In this document: positions 18,834 to 35,326 of the stretch, one piece after another
Numbering within the stretch: the first letter of the stretch is position 1
Layout: the number at the start of each line of letters is the position of its first letter
NCBI GenBank assembly: GCA_963816185.1
Contig: CAWFJJ010000001.1
Span: 320,001 to 384,000 of the forward strand
Direction of reading: 5' to 3'
Source of the DNA: Thermoanaerobaculia bacterium
Lineage (GTDB): Bacteria > Acidobacteriota > Thermoanaerobaculia > UBA5066
Length of the DNA stretch: 64,000 nt
The notes under the pieces: generated by a model
What the model was told of the DNA's origin: nothing
What the model saw: the letters and a program-made list of their open reading frames with translations, nothing else
Databases searched by the model: none
Translations under genes and position numbers: made by a program

Positions 18834-21416
18834 GTGTCCTCGTTCGGTGCTCGACTCGTCGCTCTCGGCCTCGTTCTCGTCGCTTCGCGTGCGGCGGCGC
18901 AGGGCTCCCTCCCGTGGCCCCGGATCGCGCTGACGCGCGTCGCGACCGGCTTCTCGAACCCCACCCAGGTGACGTCGGCGCACGACGGCACGGGCCGCCT
19001 CTTCGTCGTCGAGCAGAGGGGCCTCGTGAAGATCGTTAAGGACGGGGCCGTTCTGCCGACGCCGTTCCTCGACATCACCGACCGCGTGAGCGGTGGCGGC
19101 GAGCGCGGTCTTCTTTCGATCGTCTTCCCGCCGGGCCGCGCTCCGAAAGGCGAGTTCTACGCGGACTACACGGACGTCGCCGGCAACACGGCGGTCTCGC
19201 GATTTTTCGTCTCGGGCGATCCGAACGCGGCAAACGCGTCGTCCGAGGAGGTCCTGCTCAGAATCGTGCAGCCCTTCGCGAACCACAACGGCGGCCAGCT
19301 CGCGTTCGGGCCGGACGGGTACCTCTACATTGGGATGGGAGACGGCGGGTCGGCGGGCGATCCGAACAACAACGCTCAGAATCTCGAGAGTCTGCTCGGG
19401 AAGATTCTTCGAATGGATGTGCTGGGCGGGGCATCGCCCTATGGCATCCCGCCCGATAATCCTTTCGCAGGCTCTTCCTCCGCCCGTCCGGAAATCTGGG
19501 CCTATGGCCTCAGAAACCCGTGGCGGTTCTCGTTCGACCGCAAGACGGGCGACCTCTTCATCGGCGACGTGGGGCAGGGTGCGTGGGAGGAGGTCGACTT
19601 CCAGCCCGCGGGCAGCACCGGCGGCGAGAACTACGGGTGGCGGCTCTCGGAAGGAAATCACTGCTTCAACCCGTCCACGGGGTGCAGCTTCGCGGGCGTC
19701 ACGAGGCCCGTGGCCGAGTATGGGCACGTCGGCGGCAATTGCTCGATCACGGGCGGCTTCGTCTACCGCGGACGCGACTTCGCGCGCCTCTCCGGAATCT
19801 ACTTTTACGCGGACTACTGCAGCGGGCGCGTATGGGGCCTTCGCAACGGGGCCTTGGGCTGGGAGACTCAGGAGCTCCTGCAGCCCGGCTACGCCTTCAC
19901 GAGCCTCGGCGAGGATGACGCCGGCGAGGTCTACGCCGTGGACGGCACCTCGGGCGCCCTCTACCGGCTGGTGGACGCGGACGGGCCTCTGTCGGTCCTG
20001 ACCGTGCCGATCGTCGTCGACGTCAGCGGCCGGAACGGAACTCGCTTCGTCTCGGAAATCACGCTCGGGAACCGCGGGACCACGGACGCGTCCGTCGACG
20101 TGACATTCACGGCGGCGAGCGCTCTCCGGTCGACCGGAAGCGGCACGTTCACGACGACGGTCCCCGCGGGCCGGCAGCTCGTCTTCGCAGACGCCCTCCA
20201 GTGGCTGCGAAACAACGGTCTTCCCGTTCCGCTCGGCGACCAGGGCGGCACACTGCGCCTCGCGTACTCCGGGCTGTCGTCCGGCGACGCGGCGTTCGCA
20301 TCCGTGCGGACGCTCGCGGTGCTGCCCGGAGGCCGCGCGGGCCTCGCGTATCCGGCGCTCTCGCCCGTGGAGACTGCGGAGGCCGGAATCTCGATCTTCG
20401 GTCTGCGCGAGGACGCCGCGTTCCGGAGCAACCTCGCGCTCGTGAACGCGGCAGACCCGGCCGGAAAAACGAGCGTGCTCCTGCAGGTCACGCTCACGAG
20501 CGGCGACCCGGCCGACGCGCGGCGCTTCGCCCTCGCCCCCGTCAGCCTCGAGGCCGGGCAGTGGATGCAGCTCAACCAGGTCCTGCAGCGGGCGGGAATG
20601 ACGAACGGCTGGGCGACGGTCGAGCGCGTCGGCGGGGTCGATCCCTTCTACGCGTACGCCGTCGTCAACGACAACGTGACCGACGACGGCGCGTTCGTCG
20701 CGCCGGTCGCGGCCGGGCGGCGCGTATCAAGCCTGACGATACCGGCCGCAGTCCACACGTCCTCGTTCACGACCGAGCTCTGCTTGACGAATGCAGGTAC
20801 CGTTCCGATCCGACTCTCCTTCCGAGCCTTCTCGTCGCGAGACGTGGTTCTTCAGCCGCAGGAGCAGAGGTTCATTTCCGACATCCTCTCTTATCTCGAC
20901 GCCTCGGCCTCGGCCACGGCGCTCTGGATTTCTTCGAATGGTGGTGCAGCGGCGTTCCACGCGAGCGCGCGGACGTTCTCGTCCGCCGCGGGTGGGGGGA
21001 CATTCGGCGTGGCTTACGCGGGAATCTCGCGCGACGAGTCTCCTCTTTCGGAGGCATGGATCTACGGGCTGAAGCAAGACGGGCTGAGCCGTTCGAATGT
21101 CGCCCTCTCCGTCGTCGATGCGCCTTGGGTTTTTCCGTCGGACAATCCGCCTCCCAGCCCCATGACCGTCGATTTCTTCGACGGCGATTCGGGGTTATTC
21201 AGAGGGACCTCGGTCGTGCCGCTACGGCTTCGAGGGGACTGGCAGCAGGTGAATTCAGCGCTCTCGTCGTTCGGCATCCGCAACGGGTACGTGCGCGTTC
21301 GCGCTCCGGCTGGCAACTTCCAGCCCGTCCTCGTCTACGGCGTCGTCAACGACGGCGCCTCGCCGGGGCAGGGCACCGGGGACGGCAGCTATCTCGCGAT
21401 GACGTCCGTGAAGTAG
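18834..21416 (+). CDS. Glucose/sorbosone (PQQ-dependent) dehydrogenase beta-propeller with duplicated C-terminal domain
   Basis: RLFVVEQRG, GERGLL, NHNGGQLAFGPDGYLYIGMGDGG, IWAYGLRNPWRFSFD, ENYGW; GTG 18834 after GGAGG; C-terminal domain shared with other secreted proteins in the window. Confidence 0.87.
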   Translation: MSSFGARLVALGLVLVASRAAAQGSLPWPRIALTRVATGFSNPTQVTSAHDGTGRLFVVEQRGLVKIVKDGAVLPTPFLDITDRVSGGGERGLLSIVFPPGRAPKGEFYADYTDVAGNTAVSRFFVSGDPNAANASSEEVLLRIVQPFANHNGGQLAFGPDGYLYIGMGDGGSAGDPNNNAQNLESLLGKILRMDVLGGASPYGIPPDNPFAGSSSARPEIWAYGLRNPWRFSFDRKTGDLFIGDVGQGAWEEVDFQPAGSTGGENYGWRLSEGNHCFNPSTGCSFAGVTRPVAEYGHVGGNCSITGGFVYRGRDFARLSGIYFYADYCSGRVWGLRNGALGWETQELLQPGYAFTSLGEDDAGEVYAVDGTSGALYRLVDADGPLSVLTVPIVVDVSGRNGTRFVSEITLGNRGTTDASVDVTFTAASALRSTGSGTFTTTVPAGRQLVFADALQWLRNNGLPVPLGDQGGTLRLAYSGLSSGDAAFASVRTLAVLPGGRAGLAYPALSPVETAEAGISIFGLREDAAFRSNLALVNAADPAGKTSVLLQVTLTSGDPADARRFALAPVSLEAGQWMQLNQVLQRAGMTNGWATVERVGGVDPFYAYAVVNDNVTDDGAFVAPVAAGRRVSSLTIPAAVHTSSFTTELCLTNAGTVPIRLSFRAFSSRDVVLQPQEQRFISDILSYLDASASATALWISSNGGAAAFHASARTFSSAAGGGTFGVAYAGISRDESPLSEAWIYGLKQDGLSRSNVALSVVDAPWVFPSDNPPPSPMTVDFFDGDSGLFRGTSVVPLRLRGDWQQVNSALSSFGIRNGYVRVRAPAGNFQPVLVYGVVNDGASPGQGTGDGSYLAMTSVK

Positions 21417-21451
21417 GGTCGAAAACGGCCGGGAGCGTAAACTTCCGCGCC

Positions 21452-21784
21452 GTGAGAGCTGGTCTCGTCCGCGTCGCCGTGCTGGCCCTGCTCGCGCCGC
21501 TGGCGCTGGGCGGAGCGTTCGGGCACGTCGACGGCTTCGAGGTCCTCTCGCACGGCGCACACCTCTTCGCTCCCGACCATCCGGCCCACGCTCCGTTCGT
21601 CCCCGAGAAGGAACACCCGTGCGCAGCATGCGCCGTCGCGAATCTGACGCCTCCTGCTTTTGCGACCCTCCTCCTCGTTCCGCCGATCGTGGGGATCACT
21701 CGCGAGACGCAGTGGTCTTGGAGGGCGCCGACGCCCGCGCTTCCGGAACTCACTGGCCGCTCTCCGCCTATCCCGACCGCGTAG
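21452..21784 (+). CDS. Leader ORF 1 (110 aa): signal-like N-terminus, His-rich/CAAC core, C-terminal RSPP; DUF2946/CruR-like putative arrest peptide
   Basis: C-terminal part of track ORF 20201..21784; GTG 21452 lies 8 nt after TAAACT; paralog of 31965..32303 and 34991..35326. Confidence 0.8.
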   Translation: MRAGLVRVAVLALLAPLALGGAFGHVDGFEVLSHGAHLFAPDHPAHAPFVPEKEHPCAACAVANLTPPAFATLLLVPPIVGITRETQWSWRAPTPALPELTGRSPPIPTA

Positions 21785-21847
21785 ACGTTTTTCATTTCGT
21801 CCACGGTCGGGAGGCATAGCGCCTCCCCAATCGACACTCAGGGAGGC
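21766..21847 (+). promoter_or_regulatory. Putative four-segment translational attenuator (1:2 + 3:4 versus 2:3)
   Basis: TCCCGACCG 21771-79 pairs CGGTCGGGA 21804-12; GGGAGGC 21809-15 pairs GCCTCCC 21821-27, which alternatively pairs the SD GGGAGGC 21841-47. Confidence 0.65.
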
Positions 21848-21855
21848 TCGAAGAC

Positions 21856-22995
21856 ATGACCATTCGGTCATCACCGCTGAAAACGCTGTTCCTTCTTACT
21901 GTTCTCCTGCTCGCGGCGCATCCTGTCGCCGCGCAGACGGAACCTCCCCCGGCGGCGCCCGCACCCGACAGCCCGCCGCCTCAGGCGGGGGGCGGCGGAA
22001 GCCAGACGACGAACTACTTCAACCCCAGCGTCTCGGTCATCGGGAATTTCCTCGCCGTAGGGGGCCAGAACCAGGTTGAAAACCTGCCCAACGCGAGCCT
22101 GCGGGAATCGGAGCTCGGTCTCCAGGCGATCGTCGACCCATACGGGCGAGCCGATTTCTTTCTCTCCTTCGGCGAGCAGGGCGTCGAGGTGGAAGAGGGC
22201 TTCCTGACTTTCACCTCTCTGCCCGCGGGCCTGCTCGCGAAGGTGGGACGGATGCGCGTGTCGTTCGGCAAGATCAACACCCTTCACCTGCACGTGCTCC
22301 CGTGGCCGGACTCCCCCCTCCCGATCGTCAACCTCCTGGGAGGCGAGGAAGGGTGGATCGGAACGGGCGTCTCCCTCGCCGAGCTCGTGCCCTTGCCCGG
22401 AGATACGTTCTCGGAGATCACCGGACAGGTCTTCCGCGGGGATTCGGCGGGGTTGTTCGTCGCCCAGAAGCGGAGCGACCTCGCTTACAACGGGCACTAC
22501 CGGATCTTCCGCGACCTGAGCGACTCCACGAACCTCGACCTCGGTTTCTCCTACGGGCAGGGCCCGAACGGAATCGCCTCGAACGCGATGACGCGCCTCG
22601 AGGGAATCGATGCGACGTTTCGATGGAAGCCGCTCGTGCGCGGCACGTACCGCTCCGCTTCTTTGAGAGGGGAGTTCGTTCGCAGCAGGCGAGACCAGCC
22701 CGACGGCCGCCAGACGGCGCAAGGGTGGTTTCTCTCCGGCGAGTACCAGCTTGCCCAACGCTGGTTCGCCGGAGCGCGACTCGAGTCGTCCGACCACGCG
22801 GACGATTCCGCGAAGCGCGACACGGGCGTCGCCGCCACGCTGACCTTCTGGCCGAGCGAGTTCTCCCAGCTTCGCGGGGAGTTCCGGCGCCGCCGCTACG
22901 AAGGCTATCCGGGCGCGCCCGATATCTATACTGCCAACGAGGTCCTTCTCCAGGTGCAATTTGCGATCGGCGCGCACGGCGCGCATCCGTTCTGA
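21856..22995 (+). CDS. Putative zinc-regulated outer-membrane beta-barrel receptor/porin
   Basis: Signal peptide; FNPSVSVIGN, ELGLQAIVDPY, EVEEGFL, FGKINTLHLH, PSEFSQLR, C-terminal IGAHGAHPF; first gene of a ZnuA/ZnuB operon. Confidence 0.75.
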   Translation: MTIRSSPLKTLFLLTVLLLAAHPVAAQTEPPPAAPAPDSPPPQAGGGGSQTTNYFNPSVSVIGNFLAVGGQNQVENLPNASLRESELGLQAIVDPYGRADFFLSFGEQGVEVEEGFLTFTSLPAGLLAKVGRMRVSFGKINTLHLHVLPWPDSPLPIVNLLGGEEGWIGTGVSLAELVPLPGDTFSEITGQVFRGDSAGLFVAQKRSDLAYNGHYRIFRDLSDSTNLDLGFSYGQGPNGIASNAMTRLEGIDATFRWKPLVRGTYRSASLRGEFVRSRRDQPDGRQTAQGWFLSGEYQLAQRWFAGARLESSDHADDSAKRDTGVAATLTFWPSEFSQLRGEFRRRRYEGYPGAPDIYTANEVLLQVQFAIGAHGAHPF

Positions 22996-23005
22996 GGAAG
23001 GTTTC

Positions 23006-23920
23006 ATGAAAACGTTCAAGCTTCTGTTCGCCGCCCTTCTCCTTTCCTTCGCCTCGCCTCTCCTGGCGAAGATCCACGTCGTGTCGTCCCTCCAGGACTT
23101 CGCCTCGATCGCGGAGGCGATCGGGGGCGACCGGGTGGAGACGTACGCGCTGGCGAAGGGATATCAGGACCCGCATTTCGTGGACGCCAAGCCCTCGTTC
23201 ATCCTGAAGCTTTCCCGCGCCGACGTCCTGATCGTCGCCGGCCTCGAGCTCGAGATCGGATACCTGCCGCCGCTGATCGACCAGAGCCGCAACGACAGGA
23301 TTCACGTCGGCAGCGCCGGATATCTGGATGCTTCGATCGGCTGCGACATCCTCCAGCGGCCGACTCGGCAGGTCACACGCGCGATGGGTGACGTGCATCC
23401 GTACGGGAACCCGCACTACTGGACCGATCCGGAAAACGGCCGTGTGATCGCCTGGGCCGTCGCCGAGAAGCTGTCCGAGCTCGATCCCTCCGGGAAAGCC
23501 GTCTTCGAGAAGAACCTCGCCGCGTTCGAAGGGCTTCTGACCCAGAAAGAGAAGGAATGGAACGCGAAGATGGGTCCCTACGCGGGGACGAAGGTCGTGA
23601 CCTTCCACGACTCCTGGCCGAACTTCGCGAAGTACTTCAAGCTCGAAATCGCCGGGCACATCGAGCCGAAGCCGGGCATTCCGCCCACGCCCTCTCACAC
23701 ACTCGAGATCATCAACTTGATCCAGGCGCAGAAGATCCCGGTGATCCTCGTCGAACCCTACTTCGACAGCAAGACGCCGAAGTACATCGCACAGAAGACC
23801 GGCGCCGCGGTGGTCACGTTCTATCCGTCGGTCGGCGGGATACCGGAGATCAAGGACTACTTCGCGCTCTTCGATCACAACATCGACGCCTTCGTCGCGG
23901 CAAACAAGGCAAAGAAATAG
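23006..23920 (+). CDS. Metal ABC transporter substrate-binding protein (ZnuA/TroA family)
   Basis: QDPHFVDAKPS, GLELEIG, GDVHPYGNPHYWTDP, TFHDSW, IEPKPGIPPTPSH. Confidence 0.92.
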   Translation: MKTFKLLFAALLLSFASPLLAKIHVVSSLQDFASIAEAIGGDRVETYALAKGYQDPHFVDAKPSFILKLSRADVLIVAGLELEIGYLPPLIDQSRNDRIHVGSAGYLDASIGCDILQRPTRQVTRAMGDVHPYGNPHYWTDPENGRVIAWAVAEKLSELDPSGKAVFEKNLAAFEGLLTQKEKEWNAKMGPYAGTKVVTFHDSWPNFAKYFKLEIAGHIEPKPGIPPTPSHTLEIINLIQAQKIPVILVEPYFDSKTPKYIAQKTGAAVVTFYPSVGGIPEIKDYFALFDHNIDAFVAANKAKK

Positions 23921-23924
23921 ACAG

Positions 23925-24755
23925 ATGACGATCCTTCAGCTCCTCCTTCCTGCGTTCGTCGCGAGCCTCATCCTCACGGGAATCCACGCCTATCTCGGCG
24001 TTCACGTGGTCGAGCGGGGCGTCATCTTCGTGGACCTCTCGCTCGCGCAGATCGCGGCTCTCGGCACGACGGTCGCGTACCTCGCCGGATACGACCTGCA
24101 CTCCACGGCCGCTTACGTCTTCTCCCTCGGCTTCACGTTCCTAGGAGCCGCGATCTTCGCGTTCTCCCGCGTCCACCGTAAGACCCGCATCCCGCAGGAG
24201 GCGATCATCGGCATCGTCTACGCGGTCTCGGCGGCGGTCGCCATCCTCGTGATGTCGAAAGCGACGCAAGAGACGGAGCACCTGAAGGAGATGCTCGTCG
24301 GCAACATTCTTTCGGTGACGTGGGGGGAGCTGGCGAAGACCGCGTTTCTCTATTCCCTGGTGGGCCTGTTTCATTACATCTTCCGAAAGCGATTCCTCCT
24401 GATCTCGATGAACGAGCCGGAAGCGGAGCGGCAGGGCCTGAACATCCGGTGGTGGGACTTTCTCTTTTACATGTCCTTCGGATTCGTCGTGACGTCGTCG
24501 GTTGCGATCGCCGGCGTGCTCCTCGTCTTCTGCTTCCTCATCGTGCCTTCGGTGACCGCGATGCTCTTCGCCGAGCGGCTCGGGCCGAGACTCGCGATCG
24601 GCTGGACGATGGGAGTCGTCGTGTCGGCGCTCGGGGTGTGGTTCTCGTTTCAGCTCGACCTTCCGACCGGAGCGACCATCGTTGGAACCTTCGGGGCCGC
24701 GCTTCTCGTCATCGCGGGTTATCGGCGGGCGTTCCGGAAGCCGGCCGCCGCCTGA
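23925..24755 (+). CDS. Metal ABC transporter permease (ABC-3, ZnuB/MntB family)
   Basis: YLGVHVVERGVIFVDLSLAQIAALG, QEAIIGIVY, GVLLVFCFLIVP, LDLPTGATIV. Confidence 0.9.
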   Translation: MTILQLLLPAFVASLILTGIHAYLGVHVVERGVIFVDLSLAQIAALGTTVAYLAGYDLHSTAAYVFSLGFTFLGAAIFAFSRVHRKTRIPQEAIIGIVYAVSAAVAILVMSKATQETEHLKEMLVGNILSVTWGELAKTAFLYSLVGLFHYIFRKRFLLISMNEPEAERQGLNIRWWDFLFYMSFGFVVTSSVAIAGVLLVFCFLIVPSVTAMLFAERLGPRLAIGWTMGVVVSALGVWFSFQLDLPTGATIVGTFGAALLVIAGYRRAFRKPAAA

Positions 24756-24757
24756 CG

Positions 24758-25654
24758 TCACTTCGGCGCGCTCTCCGCCACGAGGCGCAGCTTCGTTCCG
24801 CCTCCGCGACCGTCGATGACGTACGTCGTGAACCGGGGAACGAGCCGGCCGGCCGTCTCGAGCCAGAGCCGCGAGCGCAGAAGAGCGGGGTCAGCGGCCG
24901 CTTCACGCGCGAGGGCGGCGAAGCGATTCGAGTCGCCTCGTGCCGCCTCGACGCGCTGAACGCGCACGGCCTCGGTGTCCTCGATCAGCGCTTGCGCCTC
25001 GCCCCGCGCCTTGGACGCGAGCTCGTCGGAATAGGCTCGCGCGTCGTTCTGAAGGCGCTCGCGGTCGGCCGCGGCGTTCTGCACGGACTGGAAGGCCGCA
25101 ATCACGGGGGGCGCAGGGTCGAGCGAACGCCAGGCTGCGGAGATCACGACGACGCCGAGCCTGCGGCCGTCCGCCTCGCGCTGAACGCGTGCACGAACTC
25201 TCTCCAGGAGGGCCGTTCGCCCGGACGAGAGGACGTCGTCCACCGGGCTCGCTCCGAGCTCCTCGGTCAGCGCCCGTTCGCCTTCCCGCTTCAGGACGCC
25301 CGACACATCGATGGCGCTGACCAGGAACCGGACCGGATCCGCGATCCGATACTGCAGGGCGCACTCGGCGACGAGGAGGTTCGTGTCCCCCGTGAGGAAG
25401 GAGCCGGCCTGCGCGGCGCCGCTCGAATTCGCGTCCGCGCCGCCCGCCGAGACCGTGAAGGTGCGCGTGACCTCCACGCGCACGATCCGGTCGACGAGGG
25501 GGATTCTCGTCCTCAGCCCGGGTCCGAGCGTCGCTTTCAGCGGAGAGCCGAAGCGGAAGACGACGGCCCGTTCCGCGGGCCCCACGAGGTATGACGACGA
25601 AAGGAGGACTGCGAGGCCGGCAGACGCCACGAGAACGAGCGCGACCCTCTTCAC
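24758..25654 (-). CDS. HflK-like SPFH/band-7 protein
   Basis: TM, then YLVGPAERAVVFRFG, LGPGL, FLTGDTNLL, YRIADP, VIAAFQSVQNA, ARGEA; GTGA overlap with the upstream gene. Confidence 0.85.
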   Translation of the reverse strand: MKRVALVLVASAGLAVLLSSSYLVGPAERAVVFRFGSPLKATLGPGLRTRIPLVDRIVRVEVTRTFTVSAGGADANSSGAAQAGSFLTGDTNLLVAECALQYRIADPVRFLVSAIDVSGVLKREGERALTEELGASPVDDVLSSGRTALLERVRARVQREADGRRLGVVVISAAWRSLDPAPPVIAAFQSVQNAAADRERLQNDARAYSDELASKARGEAQALIEDTEAVRVQRVEAARGDSNRFAALAREAAADPALLRSRLWLETAGRLVPRFTTYVIDGRGGGTKLRLVAESAPK

Positions 25655-26559
25655 TTGTGCGACTCCCGGGGGTTTGGCGGCCCGTCGACCAGAACCTTGA
25701 GCAGGGGAGAATCGGCCGGGAGCACCGCGGTCGTCCCAGTCGCGAGCATCTTCTCGTACGCGTCGAGGGCCTGGACCAGCCGGTACAGCTCCCGATCCTT
25801 CGCCGCGGCGGCGGCGTAGAGACGTGCCGCCTCGGCTTCCCCTGCGCCGCGGGCCTCGGCGGCCTTGCGCGTGGCGTCGGCGAGAAGCTTCGCCTTGTCG
25901 CGCTCGGCCTCCGCACGGATCCGCAGCGCCTGCTCCTCGCCTTCCGAGCGGAGGCGCCGGGCGATCCTCTCTCGCTCCGACCGCATTCGTTCGAAGACGC
26001 TGGCGAGGTTCTGTTCCGGGAATCCCAGCCTCTTCACCGCGAGCTCTTCGACGACGATGCCGTAATCCTCGGCCGCGCGGGACCGGACCCTGCCCTCGAC
26101 CGACGCGGCGAGGTCGGAGAGTTTCGCCTCGCCTGGCTTGGCGGAGATCAACTGGCTCATCGGGACGGTTCCAAGAGCCGCCGCGAGCTCCGAAGAGGAG
26201 AGATCCGCCAGGCGCGCTTCGGCCGCCTCGCGTCCGGCAAGGGTCTCGAGAAAACGCTTCGGATCGGCGATCCGCCACAAGAGGAAAGTCTCGACGGCGA
26301 GGTTCTTCTTGTCCTGCGTGAGGAACTCCGCGGCCGGCGGATCGAACGGCTGGAGGCGCTTGTCCAGACGTGTGACTCCGTCGACGAACGGCATTCGCAC
26401 GTGGAGACCCGCGTCCGTCACGATCTCGATGGGACGCCCGAACCGTGTGCGAACCACTTGCTCCGTCGCCTCCACGACATAGAGTGACCGCCATGCGACG
26501 AGTACGACGAGCAAGGCCCATGCGATCCGCGCGAGAGCTGCCCGATTCACTTTGATCAT
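25651..26559 (-). CDS. HflC-like SPFH protein
   Basis: LYVVEATEQVVRTRFGRP, AGLHVRMPF, FLTQDKKNL, WRIADP, VFERMRSERERIARRLRSEGEE, RGAGEAEAARLY. Confidence 0.88.
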   Translation of the reverse strand: MIKVNRAALARIAWALLVVLVAWRSLYVVEATEQVVRTRFGRPIEIVTDAGLHVRMPFVDGVTRLDKRLQPFDPPAAEFLTQDKKNLAVETFLLWRIADPKRFLETLAGREAAEARLADLSSSELAAALGTVPMSQLISAKPGEAKLSDLAASVEGRVRSRAAEDYGIVVEELAVKRLGFPEQNLASVFERMRSERERIARRLRSEGEEQALRIRAEAERDKAKLLADATRKAAEARGAGEAEAARLYAAAAAKDRELYRLVQALDAYEKMLATGTTAVLPADSPLLKVLVDGPPNPRESHK

Positions 26560-26566
26560 GAGGTCC

Positions 26567-28663
26567 TCATTCAGAAGGCGCCGCGGGAGGCTTCGTGGAA
26601 GTCGGCGCTGGAACGACTCCGGCCCGTCCGGGTGGCGTTATCCAGAGCTCGACGCCCGGGAATCGGCGTGGATCGGGAAGAATGAACTTGGGAGCCGCCC
26701 CAAGGGCGCGCGCCATCCGCTCCCAGTAGAGGCGCTGGGCGACGAGCCCTCCGAAGTGATGCGAAGACGCCGCGAGCTTCTCGAACACGTGTGCATCGGA
26801 GGCGGCCTGGCTCGTCACGAGAAGGCGCTGCGCGTCCGCAGCCAGGACTTGCCTGGCCGCCTCGCCCGCGGCAAGGCGTACGGTGGATTCCTGCTCGACG
26901 AGGGCCCGATTTCGCGTCGTCGTCCGGTCCTCGGCCGCAGAGGCCACGTCCCGGAAGGCCGCGTGCACCTCGTCCGGTGCGTGGACGTAGAGGAGCTCCA
27001 CGGCGAGCGCTTTCACGCCGAGCGTCTCCTCCAGGCGTGCCGCCTTTAGCCGGGCGAGAACTGCGCCTTCGACTCCTGCGCGGCCCGACGCGTAGAGCGC
27101 GTCGAGCTCGGTGCCGGCGATCTCCGACGTCATGGCCGCGCGGGCGACCCCCCGGAGCGATCGTTCGACGTCGGATGGCCCGAAGGCGAAGCGGGTGGGG
27201 TCGACGACACGCCACAAGATCGAGGCGGTGGCGTCGACGACGCTTTCGTCTCCCGTCACGTAACGGGATTCGGAAAGAACCCGATTCCCCGCCAGCGGAT
27301 ACAGATCCGCCGCGGCCTTTCCGGTCCGGTAGCCGAGTTCCAGGACATGCATGCGACCAACCGAGATGCGCCGCGAGATGCCGATCGGCCACGGAAGGAG
27401 CACGTGCCCGCCTGGCTCTCGTGGTTCTCCGACCGGACGCCCGAACGCAGTGACGATCCCACGCTCTCCGGGTCGCACGACGAAGAAGGCAGTCGAGACC
27501 CAGAAGACCAAGAGCACGAGACCAGCCATCCGCACGATCAGCCTCCACGGAATTCGCGGCCGCAGGACGCCGAGAAGAACGCGGGCCTCGCGGAGCCCGG
27601 CACGCATCTCGCCCCACGCGTGCTTGAAGCTGCCTCGCCTCACGCTGAGCACGAGAAGCACGACAAAGGCGAGCGCGGCGAGGATCTCCAGCCAGACGAG
27701 CGTGCCGCTCGGCGCTTCCGAGCCGGGCCCCATGAGCGTCGCGGCGCTGCGGGAGACCAGCGTGTCGAACGCCAGGCCGGCGAGCATCGCGACCGCGAAG
27801 ACCGCGCCGAGATAGAGAGCGAGGATCCGGCGGCCGAAGAGCCGTGCCACGACGGCCAGGGTCGGCAGGTTCGTCGCCGGGCCTGTGAGCATGTAGACGA
27901 GTCCGGCTCCGGGGCTCAACCCTTTCGCGATGAGGACCGCGGCGACAGGCGTCGAGCCGCTCGCGCACACGTAGGTCGGGATGCCCGCGAGGGCGGCCGC
28001 CGCCATGCCCAGGACGGGATTCGGAAAGAAGCGGGCGAGCGAGTCCGGTCCAAGACTGGCGTCGAGGAGCGCCGAGAGAACGAATGCGAGGGTCAGCCAG
28101 GGCGCCAGCTCGTCGAAGATCTCGACGAAGCCACGCCGAAGAGCGCGCTCGAACCTCTCGCGAAGAGAGGTTTCCCGTTGGGCCGATTCCGGCATTTCGT
28201 CCGGGGCTTCCGGGTGCTCCGGTTCCGGGTCTGTCACCGGCTCCGAATCCACCCGGCGACGCGCGGTCACGAGCGTGAGAACGCCCGCCACGAGGGCCGT
28301 TGCGACGGCGGCCACGGGCCGGGCGATCATCATGGCGGGGCCCAGGTAGCCGTATGTCAGAAGGATGGAATCGATTCCGGTCTCGGGAGTCGAGATCAGA
28401 AACGCGACGACCGCTCCCGGGCTGGCGCCCTTCCTCCGGAGCTCCCGCGCCGCCGGGACTACGCTGCACGAGCACAAGGGAAGCGGCACCCCGAGAAGCG
28501 TCCCGAGGAAGACCGGTCGAAGACCGCCGCCGCCGAGAAGGTGAGTGATCCGGTCGGCGCGAACGAACTCGGCGAGGATGCCGGCCAGAAGGAAGCCGCC
28601 CAGGAGGAACAGGCTTCCGCCCAGGAAGACTCGGATCAGCGCCGACGTGAAAGTTCCGATCAT
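26567..28663 (-). CDS. DUF318/ArsP-type (SO_0444-like) permease fused to a C-terminal HflK-like SPFH domain
   Basis: GVPLPLCSCSVVP, AFLISTPETGIDS, GIPTYVCASGSTP, GLSPGAGLVYMLTGPATN; then FVVRPGERGIVTAFG, YVTGDESVVD, HAPDEVHAAFRDVASAAED, all in one frame; ATGA overlap at 28660-28663. Confidence 0.85.
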   Translation of the reverse strand: MIGTFTSALIRVFLGGSLFLLGGFLLAGILAEFVRADRITHLLGGGGLRPVFLGTLLGVPLPLCSCSVVPAARELRRKGASPGAVVAFLISTPETGIDSILLTYGYLGPAMMIARPVAAVATALVAGVLTLVTARRRVDSEPVTDPEPEHPEAPDEMPESAQRETSLRERFERALRRGFVEIFDELAPWLTLAFVLSALLDASLGPDSLARFFPNPVLGMAAAALAGIPTYVCASGSTPVAAVLIAKGLSPGAGLVYMLTGPATNLPTLAVVARLFGRRILALYLGAVFAVAMLAGLAFDTLVSRSAATLMGPGSEAPSGTLVWLEILAALAFVVLLVLSVRRGSFKHAWGEMRAGLREARVLLGVLRPRIPWRLIVRMAGLVLLVFWVSTAFFVVRPGERGIVTAFGRPVGEPREPGGHVLLPWPIGISRRISVGRMHVLELGYRTGKAAADLYPLAGNRVLSESRYVTGDESVVDATASILWRVVDPTRFAFGPSDVERSLRGVARAAMTSEIAGTELDALYASGRAGVEGAVLARLKAARLEETLGVKALAVELLYVHAPDEVHAAFRDVASAAEDRTTTRNRALVEQESTVRLAAGEAARQVLAADAQRLLVTSQAASDAHVFEKLAASSHHFGGLVAQRLYWERMARALGAAPKFILPDPRRFPGVELWITPPGRAGVVPAPTSTKPPAAPSE

Positions 28664-29373
28664 GACTTCGAGAGGACGATTGCGAGGTAGATGACGACCG
28701 CCCCGAAGACGGACATCAGGCTCGTCACGACCTTGGGGTGGCGATGGTGGCTCTCGGGAATCAGATCGCTCGCGCCGATGAAGAGAAAGAACCCGCAGAA
28801 CAGGGCGAGGAGGATTCCGAGGTGATCCTCCCTCAGCGAGAGGAACGTGGTGGCGAGGACGCCTGCGATCGGAGCCGCCGCGTCGAGCAGGAGCCACCGA
28901 AACGCGGTGCGGCGGTTTTCCGCGCCCCTGAGGACCACGCCCACGGTGTTGATGCCGTCCGAGAAGTCGTGGGCCACGACCGCGATCGCGACGACGACCC
29001 CCACCGCCGCTGAGGCCTGAAAGGCGAAGCCGAGCCCCACGCCGTCGAGGATGCTGTGACACACGAGGCTGCCCGCTCCGAGCCACGTCGGTGTGTGCAC
29101 ATGCTCGTCGTCTCCATGCGCGTGCAAGAGGAGCGTCCGGCTCAGAAGCATGTAAAGGAGGAATCCCGTCGCGACGATGGCGGTGACCGCCGGTGTCCCG
29201 TATCGCTTGCCCCCGAGCTCGAGGGCTTCCGGGAGGAGGTCGAAAAACGCGACCCCGATGACGGCGCCGGCGCTGAATCCGAGGATGAGATGCAGCTTGT
29301 CCTGCCGCTTGAGCGCCAGGAGGCCGCCGGCTAGCGTGGCCAGCCCGGCGGCGCAGCCTAGGAGGAGGACCAT
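28660..29373 (-). CDS. ZIP-family metal transporter (ZupT-like)
   Basis: LGFSAGAVIGVAFFDLLPEA, HAHGDDEHVH loop, HSILDG, AHDFSDG, ASDLIPESH. Confidence 0.88.
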   Translation of the reverse strand: MVLLLGCAAGLATLAGGLLALKRQDKLHLILGFSAGAVIGVAFFDLLPEALELGGKRYGTPAVTAIVATGFLLYMLLSRTLLLHAHGDDEHVHTPTWLGAGSLVCHSILDGVGLGFAFQASAAVGVVVAIAVVAHDFSDGINTVGVVLRGAENRRTAFRWLLLDAAAPIAGVLATTFLSLREDHLGILLALFCGFFLFIGASDLIPESHHRHPKVVTSLMSVFGAVVIYLAIVLSKS

Positions 29374-29391
29374 GAGCCAGCCCTGACCTCC

Positions 29392-29416
29392 GACGGGGGC
29401 GAAAGCCCGCCCCCGT
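29392..29416 (-). other. Intergenic GC hairpin with UUCG-type loop between TBDR and ZIP genes
   Basis: Minus strand GACGGGGCGGGC-TTTC-GCCCCCGTC; no U-tract, so an RNA stability or pausing element is more likely than an intrinsic terminator. Confidence 0.4.
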
Positions 29417-29439
29417 CTGGAGCTCGCATCGACGCGCCC

Positions 29440-31878
29440 CTAGAACTCAAACTTGATCCGCGCCGCCCACGTCCGCGGCGGAACCACGTGCGTACCTCCG
29501 AAAACGGACTGGAAGTTGTAGAGCCCCTTGACGTCGAAGGCGTTCAGGAGATCGCCCTGCAGCTCGAACGGGAGGCCGTATTTCTGGAGGCGCGCGCCGA
29601 GCGAGAAGCTCCAGATCGTGCGCGACTTGACGCGCTGGGGGTCCTCGTCGAACCGGATGTACGGCGCCGCGTACGCGGTGTCCGGGCTCGAGAGGACGTC
29701 GTCGATCGTGCCCGCGTCCGTGACGAGGCCCGAGTCGTAGCGTTGCGTCATGCCGGCCCAGAGGCCGGTCTGGCCGAAGTCGTAGAAGAAGCCGGCCTGC
29801 TCCTGGATGTCCTGGTCGTGGTCGATCAGGAAGCAGCCGCCGCCGAGGGTGTCGAGGGCGCCGGCGTCGAGGAATAGCCCGCCGACGAACGGGTTGCAGT
29901 ACTCCGCGTGCACGTGACCGACCGAGACGTAGCCCCTCAGGCCGCCGAGGACTGGCGCGAGGTCGAGCCGCGCGTTCCAGCCGTTCAGATTCCCGCTCTC
30001 GAAGTTGAGCGGAAAGACGATTCCCGTGTTGAAGAACTGATCCTGGTCGGCCGCGTTCTTCACCTTGCGATACCAGTACGAGACGTCGAGGCGCAGCTTC
30101 GATCCGATTCCCTGTTGGATCCCGGCGTTGTACACATCGTGCCGTTCGGAGAGATTGAAGAGCTGGCCGCCGCCGAGCGCCTGCGCGTCCTGGATCTCAG
30201 GCGGGGCGACCGATCTCGCCTGCGCGGAAGAGGACAAGAGGATGTTCTCGTACTCGGGCGTGATGAACATGCGGTTGTACGAGGCGCGGAACACGGTGCT
30301 CGTCGCCTCGAGGAGATACGCAACGCCGATGCGCGGCTGGAGCTGGCTCTCGGAAAGGAAGAGCTCGTTGTGGTCGAAGCGTACGCCGGCGTTCACGGTG
30401 AGGCCGTTCCACCGGATGTTGTCCTGCAGATACGCCGCGACGTACGTTCCCGTCTTCGAGTCGGCGAACTGGAAAACCGAGCCGCCGCGCGTGAGGTCGT
30501 ACGGCGCCAGGTTCGGGTTGTAGCCATCGGCGTTTGGGTCGTTGAAACCGGGGTCCGTGATGCCGAACGTGAACTGCTCCCGGATCGGAAAGCGTTTCGC
30601 CTGAACCCCGACCTTGAGCTCGTTGATACCCGCCGTCTTCGAAAGCGCGAAATTGATTCCCTGATTCTCGAGAGACCGGTTCTGGTCGGCCTGGACGGGC
30701 GTGTCGTAGGGCGAGGAATAGAGCGTCAGGCGGTTATCGCGACCGTAGGCCTGCCCCTCGACCACCCAGCCGCCGGGGAGAACGTTCTGATAGCCGAGGT
30801 TCGCGTTCCAGTCGTTGGACTGGATGCGCTGGTCCTGGCCGGCAACCTCCTGCGAGGGCAGGTTCGTGACATCACGTTTCGTCCGGCCGATGTTGCTCGT
30901 CAGGCGCCAGGAGGTCGACTCGTCCGCGGAGACGGCGTCGAGGCGGATGAAGGCCCGCAGCGAGTTGCCGACGTTGTGGAAGCTGTCGAACGACACGGGG
31001 TCGAGGAACCGATCGGAACGGGAGCCGTCGGCATCCGCGAACCATCCGAACCGCGCATTCCCGCCGCCGGCGGAGGCCGAAGCCGAGCCCGTGTTGAATC
31101 GTGCGCCTCCCACCGTCACGTCGCCTTTCACGCCGTTCGTTCCGAGGCCGGAGCGCGTCGTCAGGTTGATCACGCCGTTCGCCTTCTCGCCGTACTCCGC
31201 CGGGATGCCGCCCGTGACGACTTCGAGGCTCTGCGCGACGCTCGGATCCAGGGAGTTCGAGAACGTGATGCCGATCTGGTCCCCGATCGGCTGTCCGTCG
31301 ATGACGAGGAGCTGCTGAGAGTGCCCGCCCTGGAAGTGATAGCGGCCGTTCTCGTCCTGAGAGAAGCCCGGCGTCGAGGTCACGATCGACTCGAACGCCC
31401 GCCCCGGCACGGCGGCCGCGGTCCTCTGGATGAGCGACTTGTCGATGTCGATGTGGGTCATGGCCGTGTCGCTTTCCAGCTCGACGCCCTCCTTCTCGGC
31501 CGTCACGGACTCGGCCGCCGTCGTCTCGATCCCGAGCGAGATCTCGCGCGTCACGGGGACGCTCCCTCGCACATCCACGTCGGTGTGAAACGGGGTGAAG
31601 CCCTGCAGATTCGCCGTGAGGTGATACGGGTTCGGGGGCACGTTGTAGAAGAGGTAGCTTCCGTCGCCTCCCGACGTGGTCTGCTGCCGGTACCCGGTGA
31701 TGTCGTTCGCGAGAACGACCGTAACGCCCGGAAGAGGCTTGCCGTCCGGGCCGGCAACGTGTCCGCGGATCTGGCCGCCAGTGGCGGTCGACGCGGACGC
31801 CGGGTGCGAGCCGATGAAAAGGACCGCGAAGAGAAACGAGACAAATGCGGCGCTGCGCGCCGCGCTTCGAAAAGTCAT
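29440..31878 (-). CDS. TonB-dependent receptor with N-terminal carboxypeptidase-regulatory-like domain
   Basis: GQIRGHVAGPDGKPLPGVTV, VVTGGIPAEYG..GVINLTTRSG, LTVNAGVRFD, C-terminal ...ARIKFEF; Cys/His in loops (HVHAEYC, GGCFLIDHDQ); ATG 31878 with GTGGAGG SD. Confidence 0.9.
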   Translation of the reverse strand: MTFRSAARSAAFVSFLFAVLFIGSHPASASTATGGQIRGHVAGPDGKPLPGVTVVLANDITGYRQQTTSGGDGSYLFYNVPPNPYHLTANLQGFTPFHTDVDVRGSVPVTREISLGIETTAAESVTAEKEGVELESDTAMTHIDIDKSLIQRTAAAVPGRAFESIVTSTPGFSQDENGRYHFQGGHSQQLLVIDGQPIGDQIGITFSNSLDPSVAQSLEVVTGGIPAEYGEKANGVINLTTRSGLGTNGVKGDVTVGGARFNTGSASASAGGGNARFGWFADADGSRSDRFLDPVSFDSFHNVGNSLRAFIRLDAVSADESTSWRLTSNIGRTKRDVTNLPSQEVAGQDQRIQSNDWNANLGYQNVLPGGWVVEGQAYGRDNRLTLYSSPYDTPVQADQNRSLENQGINFALSKTAGINELKVGVQAKRFPIREQFTFGITDPGFNDPNADGYNPNLAPYDLTRGGSVFQFADSKTGTYVAAYLQDNIRWNGLTVNAGVRFDHNELFLSESQLQPRIGVAYLLEATSTVFRASYNRMFITPEYENILLSSSAQARSVAPPEIQDAQALGGGQLFNLSERHDVYNAGIQQGIGSKLRLDVSYWYRKVKNAADQDQFFNTGIVFPLNFESGNLNGWNARLDLAPVLGGLRGYVSVGHVHAEYCNPFVGGLFLDAGALDTLGGGCFLIDHDQDIQEQAGFFYDFGQTGLWAGMTQRYDSGLVTDAGTIDDVLSSPDTAYAAPYIRFDEDPQRVKSRTIWSFSLGARLQKYGLPFELQGDLLNAFDVKGLYNFQSVFGGTHVVPPRTWAARIKFEF

Positions 31879-31889
31879 GTCAGTCGATG

Positions 31890-31980
31890 CCTCCACGAAG
31901 AAAGCCTCTGATCGCGGAGGGTGCGTACCCCCCGACCGTGAATGACGACGTCGGAACGTGTCTTCTAAACGGCCAGGGAG
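31890..31980 (-). promoter_or_regulatory. Putative four-segment translational attenuator downstream of leader ORF 2
   Basis: mRNA CUCCCUGGCCGU (31980-69) pairs ACGGUCGGGGGG (31939-28); CGGGGGGU pairs ACCCUCCG (31922-15); CCUCCGCGA (31920-12) pairs UCGUGGAGG containing the SD (31898-90). Confidence 0.68.
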
Positions 31981-32303
31981 ACGGGGGGCGCGCGGGCGGG
32001 AAGCTCGGGAGCGGGGGCGAAGGTGATAGTCCGCTCGGCGCGGATCTCGAGCGCGCGGCGGACCTCGGGTGGGACGAGGAAGAGCGGTGCGGCTGTGGGT
32101 GCTACCAGCGAGGCGATCGCGCAGGCCGCGCAGGGGTGCTCCTTCTCCGGCACGAACGGCGCATGCGCGGGATGGTCCGGCGGGAAGAGGAACGTGCCGT
32201 GCGACAGCGTCTCGAAGCCGTCGACGTGCCCGAACGCGCCGCCGAGAGCGATCGGCGCGAGGGCGAGGACGACCAGCAGGCGCCGGAACCGGGTCAATCG
32301 CAC
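31965..32303 (-). CDS. Leader ORF 2 (112 aa): His-rich/CAAC core, C-terminal RAPP; DUF2946/CruR-like putative arrest peptide
   Basis: ...HVDGFETLSHGTFLFPPDHPAHAPFVPEKEHPCAAC...PELPARAPPVSLAV; lies 86 nt upstream of the TBDR; TAGGAT 6 nt before GTG. Confidence 0.85.
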   Translation of the reverse strand: MRLTRFRRLLVVLALAPIALGGAFGHVDGFETLSHGTFLFPPDHPAHAPFVPEKEHPCAACAIASLVAPTAAPLFLVPPEVRRALEIRAERTITFAPAPELPARAPPVSLAV

Positions 32304-34990: not shown

Positions 34991-35326
34991 CTACGCGCGA
35001 GCCAGGCAGGGAGGGGAGCGTCCGGGAAGCTCGGGGAGAATTGGAGCGTGCTGCACGCGCTCGGCGTGAACCGGATGCGCGAGACGGATTTCGGGCGGAC
35101 TCAGGAAGAGGGGTGCGATGACCGGCGGCAGGAGGTTTGCTACCGCGCAGGCGGCGCACGGGTGCTCCTTCTCGGGCACGAACGGCGCGTGCGCGGGGTG
35201 GTCCGGCGGGAAGAGGAACGTGCCGTGCGACAGCGTCTCCAAGCCGTCGACGTGCCCGAACGCGCCGCCGAGAGCGATCGGCGCGAGGGCCGCGAGGACG
35301 ACGATCCGGAAGAGCCGCCTTTTCAT
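34991..35326 (-). CDS. Leader ORF 3 (111 aa): His-rich/CAAC core, C-terminal RSPP; paralog of leaders 1 and 2
   Basis: Core nearly identical to leader 2, with mostly third-position changes; PELPGRSPPCLARA; TAGAAT 10 nt before ATG. Confidence 0.85.
   Translation of the reverse strand: MKRRLFRIVVLAALAPIALGGAFGHVDGLETLSHGTFLFPPDHPAHAPFVPEKEHPCAACAVANLLPPVIAPLFLSPPEIRLAHPVHAERVQHAPILPELPGRSPPCLARA

Follow-up and report, generated by a model that had tools for sequence, protein, structure and literature searches.

We analysed a stretch of 64,000 nucleotides from a Thermoanaerobaculia bacterium (contig CAWFJJ010000001.1, positions 320,001 to 384,000), referred to as the window. On its minus strand, the window contains five consecutive genes that code, in this order, for a TonB-dependent receptor-like protein (TBDR; 29440-31878; 812 amino acids), a ZIP-family metal transporter assigned with Pfam (28660-29373; 237 amino acids), a fusion of a DUF318/SO_0444-type permease with an HflK-type SPFH protein (K1; 26567-28663; 698 amino acids), an HflC-type SPFH protein (25651-26559; 302 amino acids), and a free HflK-type SPFH protein (K2; 24758-25654; 298 amino acids; GTG start). 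Gene order and positions agree with a preliminary description of the locus, which also held that all five genes are tightly linked or overlapping. This is the case from the ZIP gene to the K2 gene: the ZIP and fusion genes overlap by 4 nucleotides (ATGA), as do the HflC and K2 genes (GTGA), and 7 nucleotides separate the fusion gene from the HflC gene. By contrast, the TBDR and ZIP genes are linked less tightly because the 66-nucleotide gap between them (29374-29439, minus strand) contains a strong GC-rich hairpin (z -3.0) with no U run; this spacer forms the upstream edge of a conserved block described below.

The fusion and its two partner genes

In the fusion, PF03773 is matched at residues 18-299 (8e-45; 153.6 bits against a cut-off of 32.3) and PF01145 at residues 395-586 (1e-14) within the same frame, and all three SPFH proteins exceed the PF01145 cut-off. 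Thus, the permease runs in frame into the SPFH domain, as had been described. The protein consists of a permease part (residues 1 to ~342), a basic amphipathic linker (343-372), and a part with an anchor helix, the SPFH domain and a coiled coil (373 to ~675). The CSC and YVCA motifs are both kept, at residues 64-66 and 231-234, respectively. Among the NCBIfam models, the fusion scored 298.9 bits against a cut-off of 300 for NF033936 (SO_0444), which was passed by all four homologous fusions scored; K1 scored below the cut-off of TIGR01933 (HflK; 103.4 against 159.4), K2 above it (164.8), and the HflC protein above that of TIGR01932 (HflC; 183.9 against 134.4). The SPFH domains of K1, HflC and K2 are pairwise just 27-29% identical and are, therefore, old paralogues. 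Elsewhere in the source genome, two stand-alone DUF318-family permeases (G000:C25:327699-328529 and 339787-340812) are encoded, which are ~25-33% identical to the fused permease.

In a homologue search, 8000 candidates were scored, of which 497 proteins had E <= 1e-10. Both Pfam domains were found in 118 of the 120 homologues listed (35-91% identity), and both halves of the fusion were matched in all 120 by BLAST with a median identity of 47% for the permease and 39% for the SPFH part. Including the window protein, the CSC motif is conserved in 119, YxCA in 120 and (S/T)PET in 119 of 121 sequences. Between residues ~20 and ~660, GC at third codon positions of the fusion gene remains within 0.68-0.93. 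Moreover, two overlapping contigs from run X2, which is possibly related to the source sample, cover 27324-27920 (residues ~248-446, including the junction) without a gap and, as contigs rather than raw reads, cross the junction without indels. In total, we conclude that the fusion of permease and HflK is genuine and not an assembly artefact.

Close homologues of the fusion with names are from Acidobacteriota and further ones from Pseudomonadota. The distribution is patchy: within the genus, 2 of 29 genomes contain the fusion, as do at least 7 of 401 genomes in the phylum sample, with 81 matches in addition to those listed. We compared 42 fusion loci, including the window; two of them, L002 and L008, are near-duplicates. 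In 29 loci, the fusion gene is followed by genes for HflC and then HflK; in four, it is followed by HflC and the contig end, and eight contigs end at the fusion. The sole exception is L027, in which neither HflC nor HflK follows the fusion. We conclude that the core unit, referred to as the module, is fusion, HflC and HflK in this order. In a subtype (L004, L021, L023, L052 and L058), the module is preceded by genes for an additional HflC (HflC') and a formamidase-like PF03069 protein; the three HflC' sequences included in the tree form their own branch within the module HflC clade. Searches of plasmids found one module, on an Aquibium plasmid (4 of 40 records of one search examined). Mantel correlations among the permease, K1, HflC and K2 over 25 loci gave rho values of 0.45-0.75, which indicate co-inheritance only because kin are not independent.

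In a FastTree phylogeny, all 43 module HflC sequences form a single clade (support 99), from which E. coli HflC and 18 further HflC of two-gene operons are excluded. Similarly, 26 of 27 module K2 sequences group together (support 89, quick IQ-TREE run; 13 near-duplicate loci dropped from this tree). The module has three genes instead of the two of the housekeeping hflK-hflC pair and, judged by these trees, is not orthologous to that pair: its HflC and K2 are lineages separate from the ordinary two-gene HflK/C. The genomes G007, G042 and G407 each have a module as well as a separate two-gene hflK-hflC pair; therefore, a distinct job is favoured for the module.

Other transporters in the same gene order

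A search of the phylum sample listed 19 genomes with a K1 domain in frames of ~1000 amino acids or longer, and the loci of 13 were fetched. In all 13 (Pfam-scanned on six), a fusion of a P1B-ATPase with HflK is followed by HflC and HflK, and the CPC and DKTGT motifs of the ATPase are intact. HQxSS or HQxAS is also present in the last helix of these fusions (L117-L129), and their SPFH domain contains a loop with conserved YEWNxxH. In 12 of the 13 loci, the gene directly 3' of K2 codes for a protein of 154-161 amino acids with no Pfam match. The same gene order was found with a CDF protein fused to HflK on the Aquibium plasmid (L138) and in genome G823 (L187), the latter being assigned to CDF by reading its sequence rather than by a domain scan. 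The CDF fusions match the transmembrane Pfam model only. CDF and P1B proteins are mostly exporters. On the conjugative Aquibium plasmid (L138:4240-14837; NZ_CP018172), the CDF module is followed by genes for a PPIase, a P1B-ATPase, PCu(A)C, SCO and DsbB, and the fusion is annotated in the database as HflK alone.

Among the best 150 representatives of the K1 domain (clustered at 50%), 49 are DUF318 fusions called by a custom profile, 14 are CDF fusions, 13 are P-type ATPase fusions (12 by Pfam and one by motif), and one is a TauE fusion; the remainder comprises 10 proteins whose long N-termini match nothing in Pfam and 63 short or partial sequences. A search for longer fusions with K2 as the query gave only five matches. 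Single EamA and TauE fusions with an SPFH protein (P0127 and P0238) were seen as proteins, apart from their genomic context.

Predicted structure and related systems

The AlphaFold model of the fusion has a mean pLDDT of 81 and a pTM of 0.55. Residues 375-639 best match HflK/C structures (7vhp_E; Z 17.3, root-mean-square deviation 7.7, 242 residues aligned), and Foldseek gave only SPFH-type structures among the matches listed. Residues 1-302 match ArsB (10tp_A; Z 14.4, root-mean-square deviation 4.7, 270 residues aligned), and the permease model also resembles a dicarboxylate/sodium symporter (Z 11.2) as well as TRAP and AbgT proteins; over 10tp, 4f35, 8b01 and 4r0c, Z is 10.7-14.4 at an identity of 8-13%. 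In a sequence search of the PDB, no match to the permease was found. From these comparisons, the permease is predicted to have an elevator-type, ArsB/INDY-like fold. According to the helices listed for the model, CSC comes after the turn that links helix 48-58 to helix 65-77, with C233 between helices 216-230 and 234-246. Such positions would be expected for the tips of two re-entrant hairpins, which are predicted to carry C64/C66 and C233 at the substrate site. The predicted fold of DUF318/ArsP_1 (ArsB/DASS elevator-like) is at odds with the placement of ArsP in the TOG superfamily (PMC7176098).

The 135-185 loop and the 342-374 linker each contain nine K/R residues, which points to a cytoplasmic position for both and a periplasmic one for the SPFH part, as in E. 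coli; an acidic and His-containing loop and the linker are predicted to face the cytoplasm. A complex prediction for K2, HflC and residues 368-680 of the fusion scored 0.02, its controls did not fold, and it was used neither for nor against any reading; likewise, a single-sequence fold of the permease (pLDDT 48.5) was not used.

The closest structural match to the C-terminal half of the fusion is the E. coli HflK/C-FtsH cage (PDB 7vhp, 7vhq, 7wi3, 9cz2 and 9paw; PMC12048511, PMC13220708), in which HflK and HflC alternate in a 24-subunit ring around FtsH (PMC12048511; 10.64898/2026.10.12.758600). In both systems, the SPFH subunits are of the K and the C type and combine one anchor helix with a long coiled coil. 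However, the module has three genes instead of two, one K-type subunit is fused to a transporter, its HflC is of a separate lineage, and K2 lacks the HflK_N extension (PF12221) of E. coli HflK. The N-terminal half of the fusion shares family and cysteine motifs with the SO_0444 Cu/Zn efflux family (NF033936; DUF318/ArsP_1, PF03773), the known members of which stand alone (~350 amino acids) under ZntR-type control. Under Zn or Cu stress, Shewanella requires SO_0444 and Shew_3410 (PMC3219624; 10.1101/072470).

Among the structural matches, E. coli QmcA-YbbJ (SPFH-NfeD; PDB 8z5g) is a bacterial SPFH ring with a membrane partner encoded in the same operon. We take QmcA-YbbJ (8z5g) to differ from the module in being of the stomatin-like subfamily, with a small NfeD partner, no fusion and no transporter. 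In eukaryotes, an SPFH ring around a transporter is already known, since the human stomatin dome encloses AQP1 and UT-B (PMC12407830; PDB 9zd2). Thus, the preliminary statement that no characterised SPFH-transporter complex of this type is known has to be qualified, although the stomatin complex lacks a covalent link. What stomatin and the proposed module ring would have in common is the enclosure of a transport protein, in a patch of membrane, by an SPFH ring; by contrast, stomatin is eukaryotic and homo-oligomeric, and its cargo is non-covalent and consists of water and urea channels.

In Pseudomonas aeruginosa, three HflK/C-type genes (PA2439-PA2438-PA2437) adjoin the metal transporter gene hmtA (PA2435) apart from the housekeeping hflKC; unlike in the fusion module, the P-type ATPase HmtA is encoded by a separate gene. 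PA2437-PA2439 are reported to be 9-14-fold up on zinc depletion, Zur to bind the promoter of the cluster, and HmtA to be an importer, while in one study of the same set hmtA mRNA was not zinc-repressed (PMC4542158, PMC11761036, PMC8531726). The genes are probably the three-SPFH operon PaFlo5-7 of strain PA14, the deletion of which is described as having mild effects (PMC13086221); kinship with the fusion module is inferred from these descriptions, not from sequence. In a sample of 400 genomes from the class of G426, no unfused cluster of the Pseudomonas type was retrieved with a profile of the module HflC; in 28 of the 29 top loci besides that of G426 itself, nothing but an hflK-hflC pair was seen within 1.5 kb, and the remaining locus had a CDF module.

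A proposed transporter-carrying ring and the alternatives

Because the layout recurs with two unrelated families of metal transporters, the three SPFH proteins likely form a ring-shaped cage that carries a transporter. In the reading that we put forward, and to which we give an even chance, the SPFH ring is a dedicated one to which a transporter of the Zn/Cu type, probably working outwards, is tethered covalently. K1, HflC and K2 would co-assemble into a ring of the HflK/C type with a predicted periplasmic dome; a ring of alternating K- and C-type subunits is suggested by homology, gene order and co-inheritance. The fused subunit would bring the permease, probably an exporter, into the ring as a built-in client that takes the place of FtsH, and HflC would alternate with K-type subunits as in E. 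coli. K2 may occupy those K positions that cannot all bear a bulky transporter and in this way set the number of cargo proteins per ring; such a role as a cargo-limiting filler is suggested because K2 is retained with all three transporter families. The ring may keep the transporter in its own membrane patch, cover its outer face and stabilise it, and might retain released metal near envelope proteins. The module would serve metal homeostasis, often amid genes for zinc supply. Thus, the proposal in the preliminary description that the permease is built into an SPFH cage fits the conserved fusion, its own HflC and K2, and the recurrence with other metal transporters; its second part, a chamber that concentrates metal delivered by the TBDR, is not borne out, as set out below.

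The TBDR-like protein has a plug domain at the Pfam cut-off and lies below the cut-offs of the NCBIfam TBDR models. A related TBDR is encoded within seven genes of the fusion, the distance used for all neighbour counts, in at least 3 of the 42 loci; these counts are floors because many contigs are short. The block of DNA shared with the closest relative (L001) extends from 24750 to 29377, i.e. from the ZIP gene to the K2 gene, and excludes the TBDR gene, which in L001 is placed elsewhere, behind a P1B-ATPase gene. In run X3, one low-depth contig that joins 24750 to 29439 weakly points to a strain without the block. In total, because of these counts, the end of the shared block at the ZIP gene and the hairpin spacer, we consider the TBDR a local neighbour rather than a part of the system. 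Neither an Rfam match nor a sigma-70 promoter was found, and terminator-like sites occur at chance level; upstream of the operon, a search for AT-rich, Zur/Fur-like palindromes found none, and two palindromes are located elsewhere.

A leader open reading frame (31965-32303, minus strand; 112 amino acids) precedes the TBDR gene and codes for an N-terminal hydrophobic segment, a His-rich stretch, a CxxC motif and, at the C-terminus, RAPP; in L001, a CxxC/RAPP leader precedes the ZIP gene. The window leader resembles metal-sensing arrest peptides of the CruR/CutF type. In the CruR/DUF2946 family, CxxC and RAPP are spaced by 45 residues, within one or two, and in Bordetella such a leader is reported to permit expression at low copper (PMC9426467). 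The likeness is a resemblance only, because the spacing in the window leader is 42 residues and no Pfam model, PF11162 included, is matched. Two paralogues of this leader are encoded in the window (34991-35326, minus strand, and 21464-21784, plus strand). The three are 59-70% identical, all share PDHPAHAPFVPEKEHPCAAC, end in RAPP or RSPP, and are the only copies in the genome; no obvious metal gene follows the copy at 34991. The spacers 3' of two of the leaders (21800-21840, plus strand, and 31900-31945, minus strand) contain a similar hairpin-like sequence starting with CACGGTCGGG. The plus-strand leader opens a convergent operon (21416-24755) in which it is followed by genes for a signal-bearing protein of 379 amino acids, which has no Pfam or NCBIfam match and is porin-like by eye, a ZnuA-like binding protein and a ZnuB-like permease; no gene for an ABC ATPase adjoins this operon.

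Several observations weigh against a dedicated ring with an outward-working transporter. K1 sequences lie outside the group of K2 plus canonical HflK (support 95) and form no single clade; the Z-score of the ArsB match is close to values attained by helical bundles through their common arrangement; and, given the lone EamA and TauE fusions, the client is not necessarily a metal transporter. Moreover, the ZIP gene is a variable partner near at least 8 of the 42 fusion loci, ZnuABC-type genes are near at least 7, a leader of the RAPP type lies upstream of the TBDR gene, and the hflK-C-K/hmtA cluster of P. aeruginosa is induced by zinc starvation, all of which lean towards uptake. They speak for a chamber in which the cage concentrates metal entering via the TBDR and the permease imports it, as do the Zur-bound promoter and the description of HmtA as an importer. 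A secondary carrier can work in either direction. We nevertheless consider such an uptake chamber rather doubtful: a TBDR is seldom among the neighbours counted, the conserved block lacks it, a hairpin separates it from the ZIP gene, the phenotypes of the permease family are those of Zn/Cu resistance and indicate efflux, one study did not find hmtA mRNA to be zinc-repressed, and a dome above the outer face would be an obstacle to access unless it were open. The source genome (95% complete) also contains FtsH, and no HflK/C beyond the module was found in it, as would suit a fusion by which the transporter is attached to an HflK/C cage with FtsH, where it is protected or fed to the protease according to metal status; HflK/C can increase or decrease the turnover of FtsH substrates (PMC12048511). 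Two almost identical ftsH copies (G000:C27:6495-8234 and C25:162742-164388) are possibly a duplicate from assembly or binning. The operon had been described as lacking FtsH, and ftsH is indeed absent from the window and from 57 module loci (713 kb in total); however, this is uninformative because the stretches around canonical hflKC, including that of E. coli, do not contain ftsH either. R141, E142 and R185 of E. coli HflK are of importance for its binding to FtsH (PMC13220708). R141 is kept in 28 of 29 gammaproteobacterial HflK, 22 of 26 DUF318-fused K1, 2 of 26 K2 of DUF318 modules and none of 15 two-gene HflK of the other set, and R185 in 15 of the 26 DUF318-fused K1; since E142 and R185 vary even within canonical HflK, the FtsH-contact residues fail to separate the module from canonical HflK. 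The frequent retention of R141 and R185 in K1 would agree with a cage that contains FtsH. Against a cage with FtsH stand the separate two-gene pairs in three genomes, the separate lineages of module HflC and K2, and H and F at the R141 position of K1 and K2 of the window, together with the rarity of R141 in K2, though the two-gene HflK of the phylum lack R141 as well. We regard this alternative as unlikely.

In a further alternative, which is quite improbable, the transporter part would act mainly as a sensor of metal or an anchor in the membrane and in this way govern how the ring assembles or opens, with other envelope proteins as the real clients. This would agree with the fusion of five unrelated transporter families, with the restriction of the CDF matches to the transmembrane model, and with recurrent neighbours that are secreted or envelope enzymes (a formamidase-like protein near at least 12 of the 42 loci, M23 peptidase and PPIase); however, the transport motifs are intact in nearly all DUF318 fusions and in all 13 P1B-ATPase fusions. 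That the fusion stems from an assembly error, or that two neighbouring genes neutrally lost the stop codon between them, is hardly credible, even for a patchy gene in a metagenome-type assembly: all 120 listed homologues are fused, contigs cross the junction free of indels, and parallel fusions exist with other transporters; the error part is refuted. Finally, within the reading of a dedicated ring, we tentatively consider, as an unlikely extension, that a widespread class of bacterial SPFH rings acts as a dock into which different metal exporters can be plugged, and that the tethered DUF318, P1B-ATPase and CDF exporters release Zn/Cu into a closed periplasmic dome, which would serve as a metal-loading chamber for envelope proteins under scarcity. 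If true, this would reconcile exporter-type cargo with zinc-starvation neighbourhoods, and cages of the HflK/C type would gain a job independent of FtsH.

The module is widespread and apparently undescribed in print: no description of transporter-HflK fusions was found in the literature searched, a search whose coverage excluded most subscription journals and supplements. What would be new for an SPFH ring with cargo is that the cargo is covalently attached and interchangeable; database labels such as 'HflK' or 'SO_0444 family' conceal these fusions. The question of what bacterial SPFH rings do besides holding FtsH still stands, and it is difficult to find out which clients they have. In the module, the client is encoded in the same gene, with three unrelated families of metal transporters, and the effect of the cage on the transporter is therefore directly testable. 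A role could also be proposed on this basis for the zinc-regulated hflK-C-K genes next to hmtA in P. aeruginosa, which are so far unexplained.

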